Of a stretch of 64,000 nt of DNA, positions 21,734-40,154 are shown piece after piece; position 1 is the first letter of the stretch, and every line of letters starts with the position of its first letter. The DNA is taken from the IMG/VR virus record IMGVR_UViG_3300006133_000325; one strand, given 5' to 3'. Both the position numbers and the translations under genes were made by a program. The DNA is from a virus. Taxonomy: Duplodnaviria > Caudoviricetes. The notes beneath the pieces were generated by a model. That model was not told where the DNA came from, searched no databases, and saw only the letters and a list, made by a program, of their open reading frames with translations.

Positions 21734-21844
21734 TAATCAGCACCAAAGTGGTTGCAACCTTTAAAGCTAGCTACTAATTATCCTTTCTTAATCATCTTAT
21801 TGTTTTAAAAGTTCTTGACATATCATCGGAATGCTATGATATTA

Positions 21845-24083: not shown

Positions 24084-24084
24084 C

Positions 24085-24124
24085 TAGGAGTAAACGCGCA
24101 TTTAAATGGTATACCAAACCTCAT
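24085..24124 (-). promoter_or_regulatory. Two-palindrome leader element, copy 1
   Basis: ATGAGGTTT-GGTATACC-ATT-TAAATGCGCGTTTA-CTCCTA. Confidence 0.6.
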
Positions 24125-24164
24125 TTTCCTCCTTGTTTATTTTATAAATCGTTTTATTATTCCA

Positions 24165-25034
24165 TCAATAATTAGTTAGGCAATCTCTCAACATTTCATC
24201 TTTTGCTCTTTGATAAAACGTGAGGTCAATCTCAAATCCGTATGCACTTCTTCCCAATTCAACCGCTGCCCTCAAAGTCGTTCCAGACCCACAGCAGGGA
24301 TCTATGACAACATCTCCCTCATCTGTAAATATCTCAATCAACTTTTTAAGGACTGATACGGGTTTTTGTGCAGGATGAATTTTAGGTATTTCTTTTCCAT
24401 CTCGCTCCCAATTAAACCAATTAAAAACCATATGACCTGTACCTGGAATATTTTTACCATTTTCATCAATTTGCAATCCATTTCTAAACTTAGGCAATCT
24501 GTCTCGATATAAAAGCAGTGCATATTCCGTTGCTCCTACAACACGCATATTTGCCTTTAGGACTTGAGGGCTGTAATTTTTGATGAATACTAAAGGTATG
24601 TAGTGGATAAAGCCATGTTTTGTCGCCGCGCTAATGAGCGTCTGTATCTGCTCAAAGCTGCAAAACACAATCATACAGGGAGAATTGCTACTCCTGCCTC
24701 GTGGAACTGGTTTTGTATCGTCTTTCTTTAACATTTTGTGACAGAAATTAAACATTTCATAAAGATTAAAATTGAAATCCGAATTAAAAGCCGCTTTTTT
24801 TGCATATTTACTTTCACCATTTTTGTTATTTCCCTTTTCGTACCACATAGGATTACTACCATAAAAATTTGTTCCAATGTTATAAGGACAATCGCAAATT
24901 ACCAACTGCGCTCTCGGTATGTTATAGCCTTTAAAATTCTGAAAACTATCTCTGTAAATCTCGAATTTAATTTTCTTTTTATATTCCATTTTTATTAGGA
25001 GTAAATCATGATTTATCCCGCGCGGAAACCTCAT
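24165..25034 (-). CDS. N4/N6 DNA methyltransferase (beta class); alternative start at 24989
   Basis: DCPY (DPPY-like), HPAQKP, DPCCGSGTT, GFEID. Confidence 0.88.
   Translation of the reverse strand: MRFPRGINHDLLLIKMEYKKKIKFEIYRDSFQNFKGYNIPRAQLVICDCPYNIGTNFYGSNPMWYEKGNNKNGESKYAKKAAFNSDFNFNLYEMFNFCHKMLKKDDTKPVPRGRSSNSPCMIVFCSFEQIQTLISAATKHGFIHYIPLVFIKNYSPQVLKANMRVVGATEYALLLYRDRLPKFRNGLQIDENGKNIPGTGHMVFNWFNWERDGKEIPKIHPAQKPVSVLKKLIEIFTDEGDVVIDPCCGSGTTLRAAVELGRSAYGFEIDLTFYQRAKDEMLRDCLTNY
24996..25034 (-). promoter_or_regulatory. Two-palindrome leader element, copy 2
   Basis: ATGAGGTTT-CCGCGCGG-GA-TAAATCATGATTTA-CTCCTA. Confidence 0.6.
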
Positions 25035-25081
25035 TTCCTCCTTGATTTTCTATTATTTCTATCTCATTTATTCCCTTGTAA

Positions 25082-25535: not shown

Positions 25536-26334
25536 CTACTTCTTTATTTCTTTTTCTTTACTACAATACTCATCACTTTTTAAGTGCTGTATAACTCGAT
25601 TTTTACCAGCTTCAAAATATTTTTCATCTTTTTCAATACAAATCACCTTTCTGTTTAAGTTACTTCCTGCAATTGCACATGTCATACTTCCTGCAACAGA
25701 ATCTAATACAACATCTCCTTCATCTGTATATGTTTTTATAAAATACTCATAAATTTCTACTGGCTTTTGAGTTGGATGAATCTTTTTTGATTGATCTGCA
25801 TTACTAAAAATCTGCACATCCAATGGGTATCTATCTGTACTGTCATATAAGGTATTTCGTATTTCTCTGCCATAACAGCTATTCCCATCTGCCTCTTTGA
25901 CATATTTTGTTTTTGCAAATTTTCTTTTATGTCCATGTGTCATCTGTGGATGATAAATTGGTGGTCTTTTATAAAACACTTCTATATTTTCATGCGCCCG
26001 CATTGGCATTTTTTTAGCGTTTAGATGTCCTTTGGGGTGTGTTTTCTGCCATATCCATTCATACTTAAACATCTTAGGATTACTCATTACCAAAGCAGAC
26101 GTAAATGGTTGACTACTAAATAGTAAAATCGCCCCATTGTCCTTAATAATTCTATTGTATTGTTTCCACAAAGGTTCAAACGGAATAATAATATCCCATC
26201 TACATTGAGTGGTACTAACCATACGGAAGATCGGAAATAATGCAATCTATGGATTTATCTGGAATATAACTCATAACATTCAGACAATCTCCGCGAATCA
26301 GCATATTATCACGAAAATCCGTATTGCTCGGCAC
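25536..26334 (-). pseudogene. N4/N6 DNA methyltransferase frameshifted by a 4-nt insertion
   Basis: GDCL..M...SID.I.SDLPYG* then TTQCRWD...HPTQKP...GS in another frame. Confidence 0.8.
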
Positions 26335-26399
26335 CTCCTCTTCATTAAATATTTTATATATATCTGTCAAAGCAAAATCCTTTCTTTATTTACAGGTTA

Positions 26400-26543
26400 A
26401 GTTTTTCTTATGTTGTAATATTCTATCATATCCCTTTTTAAATATTTTTTCTCTTTCTTAATACAAATACCTTTTTTCCTGATTTCTTAATGGCTATTGA
26501 TGAGATCTAAACAATCACCACAAAATAATTCAATACCTTTCAT
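26400..26543 (-). pseudogene. DNA methyltransferase remnant (internal deletion)
   Basis: MKGIELFCGDCLDL joined to a degenerate C-terminal segment. Confidence 0.5.
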
Positions 26544-26556
26544 TTAATATCTTCTC

Positions 26557-27285
26557 CTATACAAGCCCTAATCTTCTTTCTGCTACATCAAAATATTTTT
26601 TATCAATTTCATATCCTAAGAAGTTTCTTCCTAGCTCTGAAGCTGCTACCAATGCAGAACCCGTACCGCAGAATGGATCGAAAACTACTTCTCCTTCTTT
26701 GCTGGAATTTAATATATAGAATTTTAATAGATCTACTGGTTTTTCACATGGATGTGTCTTGTTTCCTATAATATTAGAAAATTGATGAACAGTTTTACTT
26801 TTTCCTATGTTATTGATATATTTTGCTTTTCCTTTTCTTAAAAACAAAATATATTCACAATTCTTCATATAATATTGGGAACAGACACAATTATTCTTCT
26901 CCCATACCAATAGATTATGTAGTTTAAAACCTACTTTTTGCGATTCGTTTAACATATCTGTCAAATTCAAGACATTCGTAAAAATATAGGCATGGCTCCC
27001 ATTCTTTAGAACTCTATATACATCCGACATCCAATCTGATATTTTTACATTTTGGTAGGAAAATAACCTTCTGTTGCCACTCAACATCCCCTTCGGACGT
27101 TCCGAATTCCTACCATTATGATTTCCTCCTGTAATAATTCTATATGGAGGATCTGTAATCAGTAGGTCTACACTTTCTGATTCCATGTTTCTCATTGCTA
27201 CAATAGAATCATCATTTATGATTTTATTACATTCCATTCTTTCTTTAGGGGTAAAATATACTTTATTGGAATTCCAAATCCCCAC
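26557..27285 (-). CDS. N4/N6 DNA methyltransferase (beta class); alternative start at 27237
   Basis: TDPPY, HPCEKP, DPFCGTGS, GYEID. Confidence 0.9.
   Translation of the reverse strand: MGIWNSNKVYFTPKERMECNKIINDDSIVAMRNMESESVDLLITDPPYRIITGGNHNGRNSERPKGMLSGNRRLFSYQNVKISDWMSDVYRVLKNGSHAYIFTNVLNLTDMLNESQKVGFKLHNLLVWEKNNCVCSQYYMKNCEYILFLRKGKAKYINNIGKSKTVHQFSNIIGNKTHPCEKPVDLLKFYILNSSKEGEVVFDPFCGTGSALVAASELGRNFLGYEIDKKYFDVAERRLGLV
27246..27285 (-). promoter_or_regulatory. Two-palindrome leader element, copy 3
   Basis: GTGGGGATTT-GGAATTCC-AA-TAAAGTATATTTTA-CCCCTA. Confidence 0.6.
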
Positions 27286-27294
27286 TCCCTCTAT

Positions 27295-34537: not shown

Positions 34538-35219
34538 TTGTCTCCATATTTACTAATCCTGTTCGCTTCATATCTTTCCAATAACAGTACTCATCACCAT
34601 CCTGAATTACTATATATTTCTTATTGATAAGATATTCTTCAAGAGAGATATTCTCCTTTTTTAAAAAATTACTCAAAATATCTTCATCTACACATCCTGT
34701 ATATGGCTCTTCATAATGCCACCATCCACTTGCTTCCCAATATCCGACTGCAATCTCCCAATCATTTCCTTTTTGTAATAAATATTCTTTTAATTCTTCT
34801 TCAGTCTTTCCATGTATTTGATAATAATCGTTATTTTCATGTATTTTAGAATCTTTATTCGCAATTATACGATTACCCATCGGAAGTTTAATCTTCTTAA
34901 GACCTGGTATGTATTTCAGCGCGAGTGAAACAAGTTCTTTATAAACCTCATCATTGTATTCATGAACCAAAGATGCACAAGCATACAGCCATTTATCTGC
35001 AAATGTTCCTATAGCCCTAAATGGGCTTCTCCCAAACTCCATATCATGAATCCATGGTTTCCAAACACAAGACACCTCTCCTGTATCTGCATCCCTTTCT
35101 AGGTATATTCCATTTAGAATTTCTTCTTTAGTATATTTATCTTCTCGTTTCATAACCGTAAAAGAGTGCATACTACTTGAGTTTGTTTCAAATACACCTC
35201 TTCTAATTTGTGTTTTCAT
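34503..35219 (-). CDS. FETNSSS-motif phage protein
   Basis: IRRGVFETNSSSMHSF. Confidence 0.75.
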   Translation of the reverse strand: MKTQIRRGVFETNSSSMHSFTVMKREDKYTKEEILNGIYLERDADTGEVSCVWKPWIHDMEFGRSPFRAIGTFADKWLYACASLVHEYNDEVYKELVSLALKYIPGLKKIKLPMGNRIIANKDSKIHENNDYYQIHGKTEEELKEYLLQKGNDWEIAVGYWEASGWWHYEEPYTGCVDEDILSNFLKKENISLEEYLINKKYIVIQDGDEYCYWKDMKRTGLVNMETIDHEYPEEDWE

Positions 35220-37413
35220 ATTTTCCCCTTTCCTTATAAAAAAGCCTTCTTAACGTACAAATATCTCTTGGCATGCTACTCAAATCTTCTATATCATGTA
35301 AATTTCTAACCCAAGCATAAAATTCATTTGCTATTGGTGTGGTTAATCCAGAAGTTTTATAAATGTATCCGTTTTTAATTGTCTCATGAGCTACGCTTCT
35401 CATAAATTTCCAGAAATGATAATATGTCAGCTTTAGCTTGACCATATATCCAGAACTGTCTTCAATTACAAAACCTTCAATCTTGTTATTGTTGTATTCG
35501 TAGTCTTCCTGTAAAACATCATAATACCAATCAAAAAAATCTTGCCAATTTGCAATCTCAAACGCTTTTTCTTTGTGTTCTAATCCAAACTGCTCTGCAA
35601 TATGGCACATCTCACCATATTCATATTTAGCAAACTTCATTTGATTGTAAACAATATCTAATAATACCAACTTGTTTTCAGAATATTCGATAATATGCGG
35701 ATCGTTCTTCCTATCAACACATTCAAACACGAATGATACATTATGTTCTTTTATATAATTCTTCATTTTCAGTATATTTTCTTCTGATACTTTCTCATAC
35801 AACATATCTTTAAGCCAGCCAGCAAATTCACTGTCAATTGTAGACTTACTTGCAATAAATAAATCATCTTCATATTCGTTATAGCTGATAATTCCCAGAA
35901 AACCATTCTCTTTCACATATGCTGTTACAGGAAATTGTAGTTTATGCTGCAACATATCAAATTTCGTTTCAGAACGTTCATTGACATTAAAAAATTTTGT
36001 ATATGCTCTTGCTACTACTTTTCCTTTCATTGTGTCAAGATATAGTCCTCTTGCTTTCGTAGTCTGTTCGTCCCATATTTTATTGTAAAATACTTTAGGG
36101 GTAAAATTAAAAGATGAAATATTACCGAACTTCTTTTCTTGAATATACTTATTAGAACGCAATGCAATAATGACATCTGCTATCGTACTGCCTGTTACAG
36201 TTTGCTCTTTTTTGATTTCTGGTGTTTTAAATACCTCATTCTTTACTTCTATTGTATGAATCCCATTTTTATCAATCTGAACACACCTGAGATAACCTCC
36301 AAATTCTACTTGTCCTTCTAAATTGAATACCTTGTCATTTACTTGAATTGGCAATTGTTTCGTATTTCTATGTCCATGAACCTGGTAATAATTTTCTGGC
36401 GTAGTATTCAAATACGTCTCTGCCATTTTCTCAAAATCATTGTAATTGCCTACTCCATGAATCATTTGATCGGTTGCTACAAATGATAAATTGTTAGGAA
36501 CTGTACTGAGTCCAGCATGAGTAACCAAGAAAACTTTATCTTCATATTTATAATAAGCACACTGTCCAAATCTTCTATATAACTGTCTGATATCTTTTTT
36601 ATCAATTCCAGCCTCAATAAGTGCTGGTTTTGTTACTAACTCAAATTCTTTTGATTGGCTGAGACAATCATTAGCGTATAACCATAACCATTTTTCATGG
36701 TTCCCTTCTAACATCAATACATTTCTCTTATCTTTAATCGAAATAAGAAACTTTACAACTTCGGCATTTTCAATTCCTCGATCAATATAATCACCTGTAA
36801 AAATGAAAAACTCATTATCTTTCATTCCACCATTATCTGATAGATATTTCTGCAACACAGTATTGCAGCCATGGATATCTCCAATATGATGAATTTTTTC
36901 ATACTCTGACAAATCAATCATTTTCATCCAAATAGTATCTAATTCATCTGGTTTGATAATCTTTACTCCAGATGGAATCTTTTGCGTAGCAAATCTGGAA
37001 TACATTTTATCTATCACTTCTTCAGGTACTCTCTTTAATGGTACTCTGTTTGCATTTCTCCTTTTTACTTCTTCAATTGGAATATCTGTAAAATCAACAC
37101 AATAAATCCGATATCTATAGGTATCACACATTTGTTTATATCTGTTGATTTCTGATGTCTTGGAATTAGTTGCATCTACTACTGTAAATTCTCCTTTTTT
37201 CATCCTTGTTTCTAACAAGTTGAATAAAACCTTCCATGCAATGCCATCATTACTTTGACTGATTTCTTCCCTACCATCCAGCCGCATAATAGGACTCTGG
37301 CATAATAATCTGATATCATCTACTGATAATGTATAGGATTTTAACCCATTCTTTTCAATCCATGTGGATTTACCACATCCGGCAGAACCTCTTAATAAAA
37401 GTAAAATTCTCAT
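35203..37413 (-). CDS. Trifunctional RNA repair enzyme: polynucleotide kinase + metallophosphatase + Rnl1-like RNA ligase
   Basis: GSAGCGKST/DD.R/DATN; GDIHG, GDYIDRG, GNHE; ARGL, KFFN, KENG, FE, EGFV, KLK. Confidence 0.88.
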   Translation of the reverse strand: MRILLLLRGSAGCGKSTWIEKNGLKSYTLSVDDIRLLCQSPIMRLDGREEISQSNDGIAWKVLFNLLETRMKKGEFTVVDATNSKTSEINRYKQMCDTYRYRIYCVDFTDIPIEEVKRRNANRVPLKRVPEEVIDKMYSRFATQKIPSGVKIIKPDELDTIWMKMIDLSEYEKIHHIGDIHGCNTVLQKYLSDNGGMKDNEFFIFTGDYIDRGIENAEVVKFLISIKDKRNVLMLEGNHEKWLWLYANDCLSQSKEFELVTKPALIEAGIDKKDIRQLYRRFGQCAYYKYEDKVFLVTHAGLSTVPNNLSFVATDQMIHGVGNYNDFEKMAETYLNTTPENYYQVHGHRNTKQLPIQVNDKVFNLEGQVEFGGYLRCVQIDKNGIHTIEVKNEVFKTPEIKKEQTVTGSTIADVIIALRSNKYIQEKKFGNISSFNFTPKVFYNKIWDEQTTKARGLYLDTMKGKVVARAYTKFFNVNERSETKFDMLQHKLQFPVTAYVKENGFLGIISYNEYEDDLFIASKSTIDSEFAGWLKDMLYEKVSEENILKMKNYIKEHNVSFVFECVDRKNDPHIIEYSENKLVLLDIVYNQMKFAKYEYGEMCHIAEQFGLEHKEKAFEIANWQDFFDWYYDVLQEDYEYNNNKIEGFVIEDSSGYMVKLKLTYYHFWKFMRSVAHETIKNGYIYKTSGLTTPIANEFYAWVRNLHDIEDLSSMPRDICTLRRLFYKERGKYENTN

Positions 37414-37829
37414 TCTTCACTTACCGTCGTAAGTTGCACGTGCTTTTCACCTATAGGAACTTTTCATTTTATCCTTTCTTTATTTCTATTTTTAATATGC
37501 TTTCATTTCAAACCATTGCTCACCACAATAATTCTCTTTTTTAATAGCATCTATAATCTAGACCGTAATATATGTACATAATCGCTATTTTGTTCTCTTT
37601 AATTACTATCTATTTCATGTCTATTTTTAATTATTGTTCTCATTTTATTTCTCCATATATAATTTCCATAAAACTGTAAGATTGACTAATAAAATTATTG
37701 ACTTACTGTAGAATTCGTTATATTCTATATGTGTCCCAGGTGCAGAATACCAGACTTAGATCCTCATAACGAGTAGTGAGAAAAACCTATGGGACATTAT
37801 GCTCACTATTTCAAACGGAGGTGTTGCCT

Positions 37830-37928
37830 ATGGTATCAGATATCGCAACGATTATTTCATTCATATCCCTATTACTCATGAAACTTAGTTGTTTACATTA
37901 TCTAAGTCTGGTTGCCGACCTTATATAA
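37830..37928 (+). CDS. Small hydrophobic peptide, candidate type I toxin (32 aa)
   Basis: GGAGG RBS; MVSDIATIISFISLLLMKLSCLHYLSLVADLI; own promoter and structured 5' UTR. Confidence 0.45.
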   Translation: MVSDIATIISFISLLLMKLSCLHYLSLVADLI

Positions 37929-38028
37929 ATAACAGAGCTATTTGTTATTTACCCAAAATTATTTCTGTATGTTCTATTTCGTGTTTCTTAATTTAAGCCC
38001 AACTTTACTGTTTCAGGTATTTCTATGT

Positions 38029-39000
38029 CTAATATTCAGTAATATCTTCCTCTATTTCCGGAATTTCGATAAACTGTGCTAATAATCCTTCATGATAAAA
38101 TACTTTATCATTTTCCGTAATATCTTCTTTTAAAAACCTTCTGATTACAAACGGCAACATATAATTATCTAAACATTTAAACTCAATATCTTTTTCTCCA
38201 TTTTCTTTTATAATCTCTTTATAAAATCCTTCTGTTCCATGAATTACATAAAGGCGAAACAGTTCTACTCTAAATGGAACTGGAATAAGACAATCATTTC
38301 CATAAATCATATTATTTATATTTTTCTTGATCCAGCTTACAAGTAAATAATTTAACCCATCCTCCCTATCAGAAACATCTATTACAATTTCATCGTTAGA
38401 GAAAAATACTACTCTATCAATTGAAATTACTTCTTTTAAGTGTATTAAAAGTTGATCCATTATATATTTCTCATAGGTAATATGCCTTTTTGGATTACAG
38501 TTTCCCAAAATCACCTGGCGAATATATTTGCTGTTTATAATATGCTGATTTAGAGTATATCTCCCAATAAATTCTTCCCATGTATCCGCGTTACCAAAAA
38601 TTTCAGAACTATAATTCTGCAAAGCTGAAAAATTCGCTTTTCTCATATCAATGCTAATAAAACACTTTCCATTATTAGAAGGCTTAAATATGTCCTTACT
38701 CGGAAGATCTATATGTGTAATCCGGTACTTATTCATGTCTTCCTCATTAAAACGTTTATAGGAGCTTGATTCTTTAATGGATAAAATAGCAGAATCTTTT
38801 ATACGATTATATTCTTCAAAGTAATCTTGCTCACAATGATACTTCTCTAACTCACTTACAAACAGATTCCATTTTTCATTTGTTCCATAAAATTTATCAT
38901 ATAACTTTATCCTGTCACTAAAATATGGCTCCTGGAAAATACGTAACGGAATATTACAATCTTTGCAAAAGCGTTGTTTTGCTACTACAGATACTTCCAT
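38029..39000 (-). CDS. Hypothetical protein with possible polymerase-palm motifs
   Basis: 323-aa ORF; FISIDMRKANF and FSNDEIVI. Confidence 0.7.
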   Translation of the reverse strand: MEVSVVAKQRFCKDCNIPLRIFQEPYFSDRIKLYDKFYGTNEKWNLFVSELEKYHCEQDYFEEYNRIKDSAILSIKESSSYKRFNEEDMNKYRITHIDLPSKDIFKPSNNGKCFISIDMRKANFSALQNYSSEIFGNADTWEEFIGRYTLNQHIINSKYIRQVILGNCNPKRHITYEKYIMDQLLIHLKEVISIDRVVFFSNDEIVIDVSDREDGLNYLLVSWIKKNINNMIYGNDCLIPVPFRVELFRLYVIHGTEGFYKEIIKENGEKDIEFKCLDNYMLPFVIRRFLKEDITENDKVFYHEGLLAQFIEIPEIEEDITEY

Positions 39001-39576: not shown

Positions 39577-40154
39577 TTAACTACCTCCTCATAAAATGTA
39601 AGTTTCATTTCTACTTATTTCGTTTTCTTCTTCCTAATCTAAACTAGTATAAATATCATATATATGTAGCTGAAACCCCACATTGTTTTTACAGGATAAA
39701 CAATTCTTAATTTCTCCTTTATTTTCTTATCTCTTTTCTCTAGTAACCCAACAATATCTTTTATTGGTGTATTCATATCTTTCTAATTCATACTTCACCA
39801 ACCTACCCTCCACATTCACAATCCAGAACTGCTATATCTATCTCATAAGCATTCCATCCATACTTTGTATTTTTTTATATGCCAATAAATGCACATATGT
39901 CATACATTTTTCTCCATGTCATAATAATTTTTATAAATATCTTGTGTTATATCTGTATTTATTATATACTTCTGTGAAAAATTTTTCACCACTAGTATAT
40001 TTCCGTAGAACCATTACTACGATTTTACTCATAGGTTCTTTCATTTCTGGTAAATTCATAAAAATTAATTCTTCCTTATTTTTTATTTTATATTTGCATT
40101 CTCCTTCTATTGTGTTATAATAGTAATAATCATTTTATAAGGGAGGCTTGATTT

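Follow-up and report, generated by a model that had tools for sequence, protein, structure and literature searches.

The element upstream of the RNA-repair gene is a diverged and somewhat eroded copy of a conserved leader cassette of approximately 75 nt. Besides 112 IMG/VR contigs, the cassette was found in a contig from ENA and in a further metagenome contig. In the 5' to 3' direction, a AAGAAAGGA box and AAGTT are followed by the palindrome CCTATAGG, which an A-rich spacer separates from another 8-nt palindrome, and by a hairpin of the form CTTAC-N4-GTAAG. The cassette is a new and uncatalogued family of putative structured translational leader with no matching Rfam family, and this subtype is specific to RNA-ligase genes. 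We give roughly even odds (a probability of about 0.5) to the reading that the cassette is a conserved mRNA leader that acts in cis and sets the initiation of ligase translation in uncultured, low-G+C gut phages.

Parts of the leader and its copies before RNA-ligase genes

The window, i.e., the whole 64,000-nt stretch of viral DNA that was analyzed, contains the leader upstream of a fusion gene for RNA repair (Table 1). The two palindromes, the letters AAGTT and AACTT, the CTTAC-GACG-GTAAG hairpin, and the six-codon uORF that had been reported in the preliminary description were all present on the minus strand at 37414-37480. That observation is real apart from the enclosing repeat, and its interpretation was half right. 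The palindromes CCTATAGG and GCACGTGC each occurred once in the window, where 0.31 and 0.09 occurrences were expected, and their centers were 14 nt apart, within the range of 12-15 nt downstream of an SD-like box that characterizes the two-palindrome layout. The leader reads AACTTACGACGGTAAGTGAAGA from palindrome GCACGTGC to the ATG of the gene, and its hairpin can be extended to 6 bp (ACTTAC/GTAAGT, 37419..37434, minus strand), leaving 5 nt before the ATG. The PF09511 ligase domain spans residues 453-665 of the fusion protein, i.e., the gene next to the leader encodes an RNA ligase. Homology between this gene and its relatives began precisely at the ATG at 37413; one public gene call for the fusion protein (P0001) begins 42 codons late, and the leader explains how the true start of genes of this kind escapes gene callers.

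Table 1. Features of the window that are discussed in the text.
Feature	Position	Strand	Remark
Sister leader (AGCTAGCT, GTTGCAAC) before radical-SAM-like gene	21734..21790	-	Flank duplex z = -2.2
Class B two-palindrome leader before D12 (Dam-like) methylase	24084..24135	-	
Further two-palindrome leaders	~24990-25045 and 27241-27290		
736-aa kinase / metallophosphatase / Rnl1-type RNA ligase fusion	35203..37413	-	Pfam PF13671, PF00149, PF09511
Purine-rich tail GAAGA (TGAAGA counting the last T of the 6-bp hairpin)	37414..37418	-	No usable SD
Hairpin CTTAC-GACG-GTAAG	37420-37433	-	In minimum-energy fold
AACTT after palindrome 2	37431-37435	-	
Palindrome 2, GCACGTGC	37436..37443	-	Other sequence in IMG/VR copies
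Spacer TGAAAA between palindromes	37444-37449	-	
uORF MKSSYR*, ATG AAA AGT TCC TAT AGG TGA (6 codons)	37447..37467	-	Not conserved
Palindrome 1, CCTATAGG	37450..37457	-	Identical in all 115 copies
AAGTT, directly 5' of palindrome 1	37458-37462	-	
SD-like box AAGAAAGGA	37472..37480	-	58 nt 5' of true ATG; found in every leader copy
Small hydrophobic ORF	37830-37928	+	Opposite strand to repair gene

The upstream SD had been thought to serve the uORF. The box AAGAAAGGA serves as a normal SD both in L001 and at position 26390 of the window, and upstream of the repair gene only TAAA (4 nt) separates it from the uORF ATG, which is in the frame of the main gene. This arrangement would suit a regulator that works through the leader peptide or through translational coupling. 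However, the ATG was absent from all 114 other copies, which have ACG (L003) or ATAG (L185 and the 112 IMG/VR contigs) in its place; therefore, the SD is not there to serve the uORF. Furthermore, the stop codon of the uORF lies 33 nt upstream of the true ATG, and its SD spacing is shorter than the approximately 7 nt at ordinary genes of these phages. Regulation by the uORF is extremely improbable, and the tiny frame, judged from the copies, is an accident.

A search with the pattern AAGTTCCTATAGG-N10-18-CTTAC-N4-GTAAG recovered the 112 IMG/VR contigs, which were 6-217 kb long and mostly of at least 90 kb. The ligase-leader class was defined from these copies and from L185, a metagenome contig with a third and more distant copy. 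The window shares with the class a AAGAAAGGA-type box 8-10 nt upstream of AAGTT, CCTATAGG as the first palindrome, a second 8-nt palindrome 5-6 nt further on that differs in sequence yet is perfect, and a CTTAC-N4-GTAAG hairpin a few nucleotides upstream of the start codon. In the IMG/VR set, the second palindrome was GTGCGCAC in 110 copies and an imperfect ACGTGCGT in two. The hairpin stem was the same in all copies, with GACG, TAAG, TACG, or TATG as the loop. L185 contained the same box, AAGTT, and CCTATAGG, a perfect GTGCGCAC as palindrome 2, and the same hairpin stem with a different loop, and it lacked a uORF. The hairpin, both palindromes, and the box were intact in three lineages (the window, L003, and L185).

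The 42-nt core was near-invariant across the 112 IMG/VR copies. Within one ligase type, its identity was 98-100%, compared with 89-92% for the first 120 coding nucleotides of the same copies. The element was always in the sense orientation in these copies, and its 3' end lay at the start codon. The downstream ORF encoded an RNA ligase in all readable IMG/VR cases (109/109), and the ligases were of three types (439 aa, n = 45; 389/390 aa, n = 48; 308 aa, n = 16) that showed no BLASTP similarity to one another. The kinase-phosphatase-ligase fusion of the window and L003 represents a fourth type, and in L185 the product of the gene downstream of the leader has at its N-terminus the OB-fold domain PHA02142, which is a domain of RNA ligases. 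These data establish membership of the family, its conservation, and its link to ligase genes. The near-invariant core, conserved above the coding start and placed before ligases of unrelated families in a fixed orientation that ends at the start codon, argues for a leader that acts in cis.

In the contigs L186-L297 (e.g., L189:1300-1790), a gene encoding a 240-aa HNH endonuclease always preceded the RNA-ligase gene (112 gut-phage contigs), and the ligase family varied between phages, with the swap point exactly at the start codon. As the common form adjoins the HNH gene in every one of the 112 contigs, part of its conservation could stem from gene conversion. The palindromes and the core might instead form a recognition or recombination sequence at the DNA level, e.g., for the neighboring HNH endonuclease, and provide a fixed left junction for ligase swaps. 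Such a site would be consistent with an HNH gene that stops approximately 10 nt short of the leader in the IMG/VR contigs, with start codons that mark the exact junction for three unrelated ligase families and for the window fusion, with palindromes that are perfect through their centers, and with a core that is more conserved than the coding sequence. On the other hand, the leaders of the window and L003 have no HNH gene beside them, the HNH gene of L185 is separated from the leader by a toxin-like gene, and the orientation and the distance to the start codon are fixed. Genomes with the endonuclease would also carry its own target. Moreover, the palindromes of the wider family (see below) differ between close relatives, and thus no single sequence-specific protein can read them. 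We regard a DNA-level site as unlikely.

Rfam gave no match at gathering score in the window, including SAM riboswitches, T-box elements, and self-cleaving ribozymes; at E up to 10, the matches in 37380-38060 were only snoRNA-like and at chance level, and nothing matched in L185. A sigma-70 scan of 37300-38200 found fewer sites than in shuffles and no terminator, and no tRNA was found. The exact core CCTATAGG-N6-GCACGTGC and a 22-mer had no match in viral, metagenome, and genome collections, and the form of palindrome 2 in the window is known from the window and L003 only. A pattern admitting other first palindromes had no match, and the GenBank phage collection held no isolate with the leader. 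The leaders are short and variable in length, and MAFFT alignments of them were out of register.

Predicted folds and translation initiation

The minimum-energy fold of the common form of the ligase leader was an 8-bp helix (AAGUUCCU:AGGAACUU) stacked on the hairpin, which argues for a cis-acting leader. The common form has AGGAACTT, which pairs with AAGTTCCT, where the window has the tail GAAGA. In L189, a contig with the common form, the duplex had -11.0 kcal/mol (z = -2.8), and one of 200 shuffles was as good; L003 retained a 6-bp version of the helix (-6.5, z = -0.1). The helix AAGUUCCU:AGGAACUU ending at the start codon was absent from the window, where its 3' strand is replaced by GAAGA. 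The enclosure of the palindromes by AAGTT and AACTT, as put forward in the preliminary description, did not stand up. Although this pairing was the best duplex between the flanks, it had -2.6 kcal/mol (z = +1.7), and 196 of 200 shuffles were equal or better. It also shares three bases with the hairpin; therefore, full formation of both is impossible. An enclosing duplex no better than chance in the window, together with modest z-scores for the leader folds (-0.9 to -2.6), counts against a leader that acts in cis. The core is so invariant that there is almost no covariation within the ligase subtype.

From the folds of the common form, we infer an action at the RNA level, which may turn translation either down (off) or up (on). 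A folded insert would keep the strong SD-like box at a distance of 58-59 nt from the true start. The 8-bp helix of the common form, on the CUUAC/GUAAG hairpin, would end at the start codon, or two bases into it, and would hide a local GAGGA ribosome site. The same helix would bring the upstream box to approximately 8 nt from the start, i.e., to the split-site geometry that is functional in T4 genes 25 and 38. In the window copy, in which the helix is lost, a hairpin, two palindromes, and a stranded SD box are left, and the true ATG is thus without a usable SD. The SD-to-start distance of the window leader is 58 nt, of which the hairpin takes out only 16 nt, whereas the distance in the common form comes down to approximately 8 nt. 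In this model, translation of the repair enzyme of the window is probably weak or dependent on the hairpin region, and its leader is a diverged, perhaps weakened member of the family.

Several known systems resemble the proposed leader in part. The mom gene of phage Mu (com-mom control) has a translation-inhibition structure, in which an mRNA helix covers the ribosome site, and Com is its activator. The common ligase form is likewise predicted to place a helix over the ribosome site of a nucleic-acid-modifying enzyme; however, no Com-like activator is known for the ligase leader, and the sequences are unrelated. The STAB-SD of Bacillus cryIIIA and the polypurine stabilizer of phage SP82 are orphan-SD 5' mRNA stabilizers that are located near the 5' end of the transcript. 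The ligase leader similarly has a strong SD-like box that lies in a Firmicute leader and is too far from any start codon to work on it, whereas its box usually lies approximately 10-25 nt after the stop codon of an upstream gene. T4 genes 38 and 25 have split ribosome-binding sites, in which the SD is brought to 5 and 11 nt (Nivinskas et al., 1999; Malys and Nivinskas, 2009; reviewed in PMC3014915), and they provide a precedent for a cis-acting leader. As in these genes, the SD of the ligase leader is too far from the start and RNA structure lies between, with the predicted fold of the common form leaving approximately 8 nt. Unlike in T4, the insert is approximately 50 nt rather than 17-22 nt, contains two perfect palindromes, and would hide a second, local SD, and the bridging helix is missing from the window copy. 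Some leaders of phage homing-endonuclease genes also hide the start site (PMC3014915).

Sister leaders with two palindromes

The ligase leader has sister leaders in the window (Table 1) and in related phages. Their common skeleton comprises an SD-like box, an A-rich linker, an 8-nt palindrome, a purine-rich spacer of 4-7 nt, a second palindrome, and the start. In the window and its relatives, they precede D12, N6_N4, and EcoRI-like methylase genes, as well as radical-SAM-like and PAPS-reductase-like genes. The layout of the ligase leader is shared, as this skeleton, with leaders of methylase and radical-SAM genes of the window and related phages. The view that the element is not strictly tied to SAM enzymes holds for the leader family, whereas the ligase subtype is bound to one gene class. 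A general device of this phage, as had been proposed, is not what was found: the 64 kb of the window contain approximately five leaders of this kind, and each related contig of 100-150 kb contains one to three.

Three cases of two G+C-containing 8-nt palindromes separated by at most 8 nt were seen in the window, compared with 0.42 expected (sd 0.71, maximum 4; 200 shuffles), and palindromes overall were depleted (257 seen vs. 352 expected). An excess of palindrome pairs over shuffles was therefore seen in the window. In contrast, raw pairs were not raised in four related contigs (3 each vs. approximately 3.8 expected), in which enrichment appeared only behind an SD-like box. In the 598 kb of the window and the four related phage contigs, 14 pairs were seen behind such a box and 2.2 were expected. 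The paired palindromes thus exceed chance.

In methylase leaders of class A (L004, L067, L112, and others; L067:2181-2229), an insert of approximately 38 nt splits a would-be perfect 13-nt SD between AGAAAGGA and GGTGA. The insert ends in CCTTTCT, presumably the letters of the Firmicute 16S rRNA 3' end, and its removal would restore AGAAAGGAGGUGA, which we take to be the full complement of the Bacillus 16S 3' tail. The SD box of class A (CAGAAAGG) pairs with CCUUUCUG on the 3' side of the second palindrome, and in class B, AGGAG pairs with CUCCU; the duplexes of SD box and pyrimidine box in both classes had z from -2.6 to -6.8. Several stems of the sister leaders, including some second stems, contained G-U pairs on the sense strand only. 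Helices from the flank to the start were of differing sequence and the same arrangement (AGUCAUC/GGUGACU, GUUCAC/GUGGAC, and AUAAUUAG/CUGAUUAU), equivalent to the helix of the common ligase form. The box pairing, the sense-only G-U pairs, and these helices are consistent with action in cis at the RNA level.

In methylase and other DNA-modification leaders, the SD box has a pairing partner in a pyrimidine box, either CCTTTCT or CTCCT, whereas the ligase leader has none. In the window leader, neither form of the box follows palindrome 2, and the flanks form no significant duplex. Furthermore, the palindromes of the DNA-modification leaders change freely, whereas the ligase leader has a fixed palindrome 1 and an extra hairpin. 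It is closest to a sister subclass without a pyrimidine box, in which the bases after the SD box and the left half of palindrome 1 pair with the local ribosome site. Both kinds of leader occur on one contig in L092/L203 and L141/L231.

The palindromes vary between close relatives yet stay perfect, as in the paired changes of GCTGCAGC vs. GTTGCAAC and of TCATATGA vs. CCATATGG. Perfect 8-nt palindromes give only 2-bp hairpins, and intramolecular folding leaves their self-complementary centers unexplained, which weighs against a leader that works in cis. Pairing of two mRNA copies through the palindromes, by which translation would follow the concentration of the transcript, would account for these centers and for the paired changes. 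The predicted homodimer gain was -11.9 in the window, compared with -7.0 +/- 2.6 in shuffles, and -19.9 in L189. However, this gain follows by construction from the palindromes, palindrome 2 is imperfect in two copies, the second stems of class B have G-U pairs and non-palindromic loops, and cellular mRNA concentrations are low. We know of no bacterial precedent for control by palindrome pairing between mRNAs, and this explanation is quite improbable.

Two further ideas were rejected. Cores such as GAATTC are not avoided in the rest of the window, and the palindromes are therefore not rare, protected restriction sites; methylase homologues that are 72-80% identical have different palindromes, which are thus not the targets of the enzymes themselves. 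A SAM riboswitch was rejected for the wider family, given that there was no model match and that the enzymes encoded downstream of the ligase subtype do not depend on SAM.

RNA ligases and end-healing enzymes of phages undo the damage caused by host anticodon nucleases and other RNA-cutting defenses; to our knowledge, little is known about how the expression of phage RNA-repair enzymes is controlled. The occurrence of one near-invariant leader before four unrelated ligase families in more than 100 gut phages, and of sister leaders before DNA-modification genes, points to a portable control cassette for counter-defense genes. The leader is also a compact candidate RNA element of approximately 75 nt that is testable and absent from Rfam. 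It could be a sensor of RNA status dedicated to the control of ligase synthesis, in which a cut by a host ribotoxin, or the binding of ligase or of its broken RNA substrates, would free the start; alternatively, pairing of two messages through the palindromes would set the dose. Either version would explain why one invariant leader serves four unrelated ligase families and sister leaders serve DNA-modification genes, but this proposal is highly speculative and has little chance of being correct.

Three additional observations were made among the sister leaders. At 26180-26560 of the window (minus strand), a methylase start breaks off after approximately 18 codons, and the second methylase frame behind it is interrupted by an in-frame TAG downstream of ...DLPYG, suggesting decayed or recoded methylase genes in the array. 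On the G003 contig (L052, approximately 39790-39860), a run of nine G, perhaps a tract for slippage, lies between a sister leader and a PAPS-reductase-like gene. An unrelated repeat, catcgttacaac-CAGAAAGG...CCTTTCTGG-tcataacgac, occurs once or twice per viral contig of 32-37 kb (L069, L073, L075, and approximately 40 other loci) and was picked up by the class A pattern by chance.

Relatives of the fusion gene and the neighboring toxin-like block

Most relatives of the fusion gene (approximately 81% identity) have the gene of a CCA-adding enzyme directly upstream and a plain GGAGG site, with no leader. In a relative with 65% identity, there is a promoter of the sigma-70 type, and a normal AGAAAGGA site is spaced 7 nt from the ATG. 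L003 (87% protein identity) is the only lineage with the arrangement of the window and contains the same leader. The repair gene belongs to a conserved set with an RlaP-like nucleotidyltransferase and a protein of approximately 320 aa (window 38029-39000; L004-L007). In most relatives, this set includes the CCA-adding enzyme, which the window and L003 lost or never had. The 615-nt gap upstream was considered as a remnant of the gene for this enzyme, and this was rejected by tblastn and blastn.

The window and L003 form a mosaic: identity is 85% in the gene, which includes unbroken matches of 71 and 62 nt, and 95-97% in the flanks. Because of these matches and flanks, the 46-nt identical block in the leader is not exceptional and proves little alone, and it was rejected as evidence of constraint by itself. 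A conserved toxin-like block (37741-37922) lies near the leader. The leader and this block are conserved between the window and L003 (46/48 positions), and the approximately 200 nt between them are unalignable. Block and leader occur together in the window, in L003 and L185, and at 14 of 112 IMG/VR loci; the two are therefore separable.

The leader of the window may also be a decaying relic, left after a cassette of the small toxin-like gene and the leader replaced the gene of the CCA-adding enzyme, with no remaining regulatory role and with translation from a residual weak site. The CCA-adding enzyme gene and plain GGAGG site of the 81% relatives, the loss of the 8-bp helix of the common form from the window, the stray ATG after the SD box, and the unexceptional 46-nt identity with L003 would fit such decay. 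It is less readily reconciled with the conservation of the leader and the block against L003 across an unalignable stretch, or with a hairpin, palindromes, and a box that are intact in three lineages. Decay is possible, but rather doubtful.

The block is closed by a 12-bp stem (CCAGACTTAGAT/ATCTAAGTCTGG) with many paired changes in relatives. Its plus strand has a canonical GGAGGT site followed, after 7 nt, by a conserved hydrophobic ORF of 30-36 codons that begins with MVSDIAT. A non-coding RNA at 37741-37922 was considered and dropped because the opposite strand has this conserved small ORF. By its sequence features, the block resembles a gene of the type I toxin kind whose mRNA would form a long-range fold. 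Short forms of the block without the ORF were also observed.
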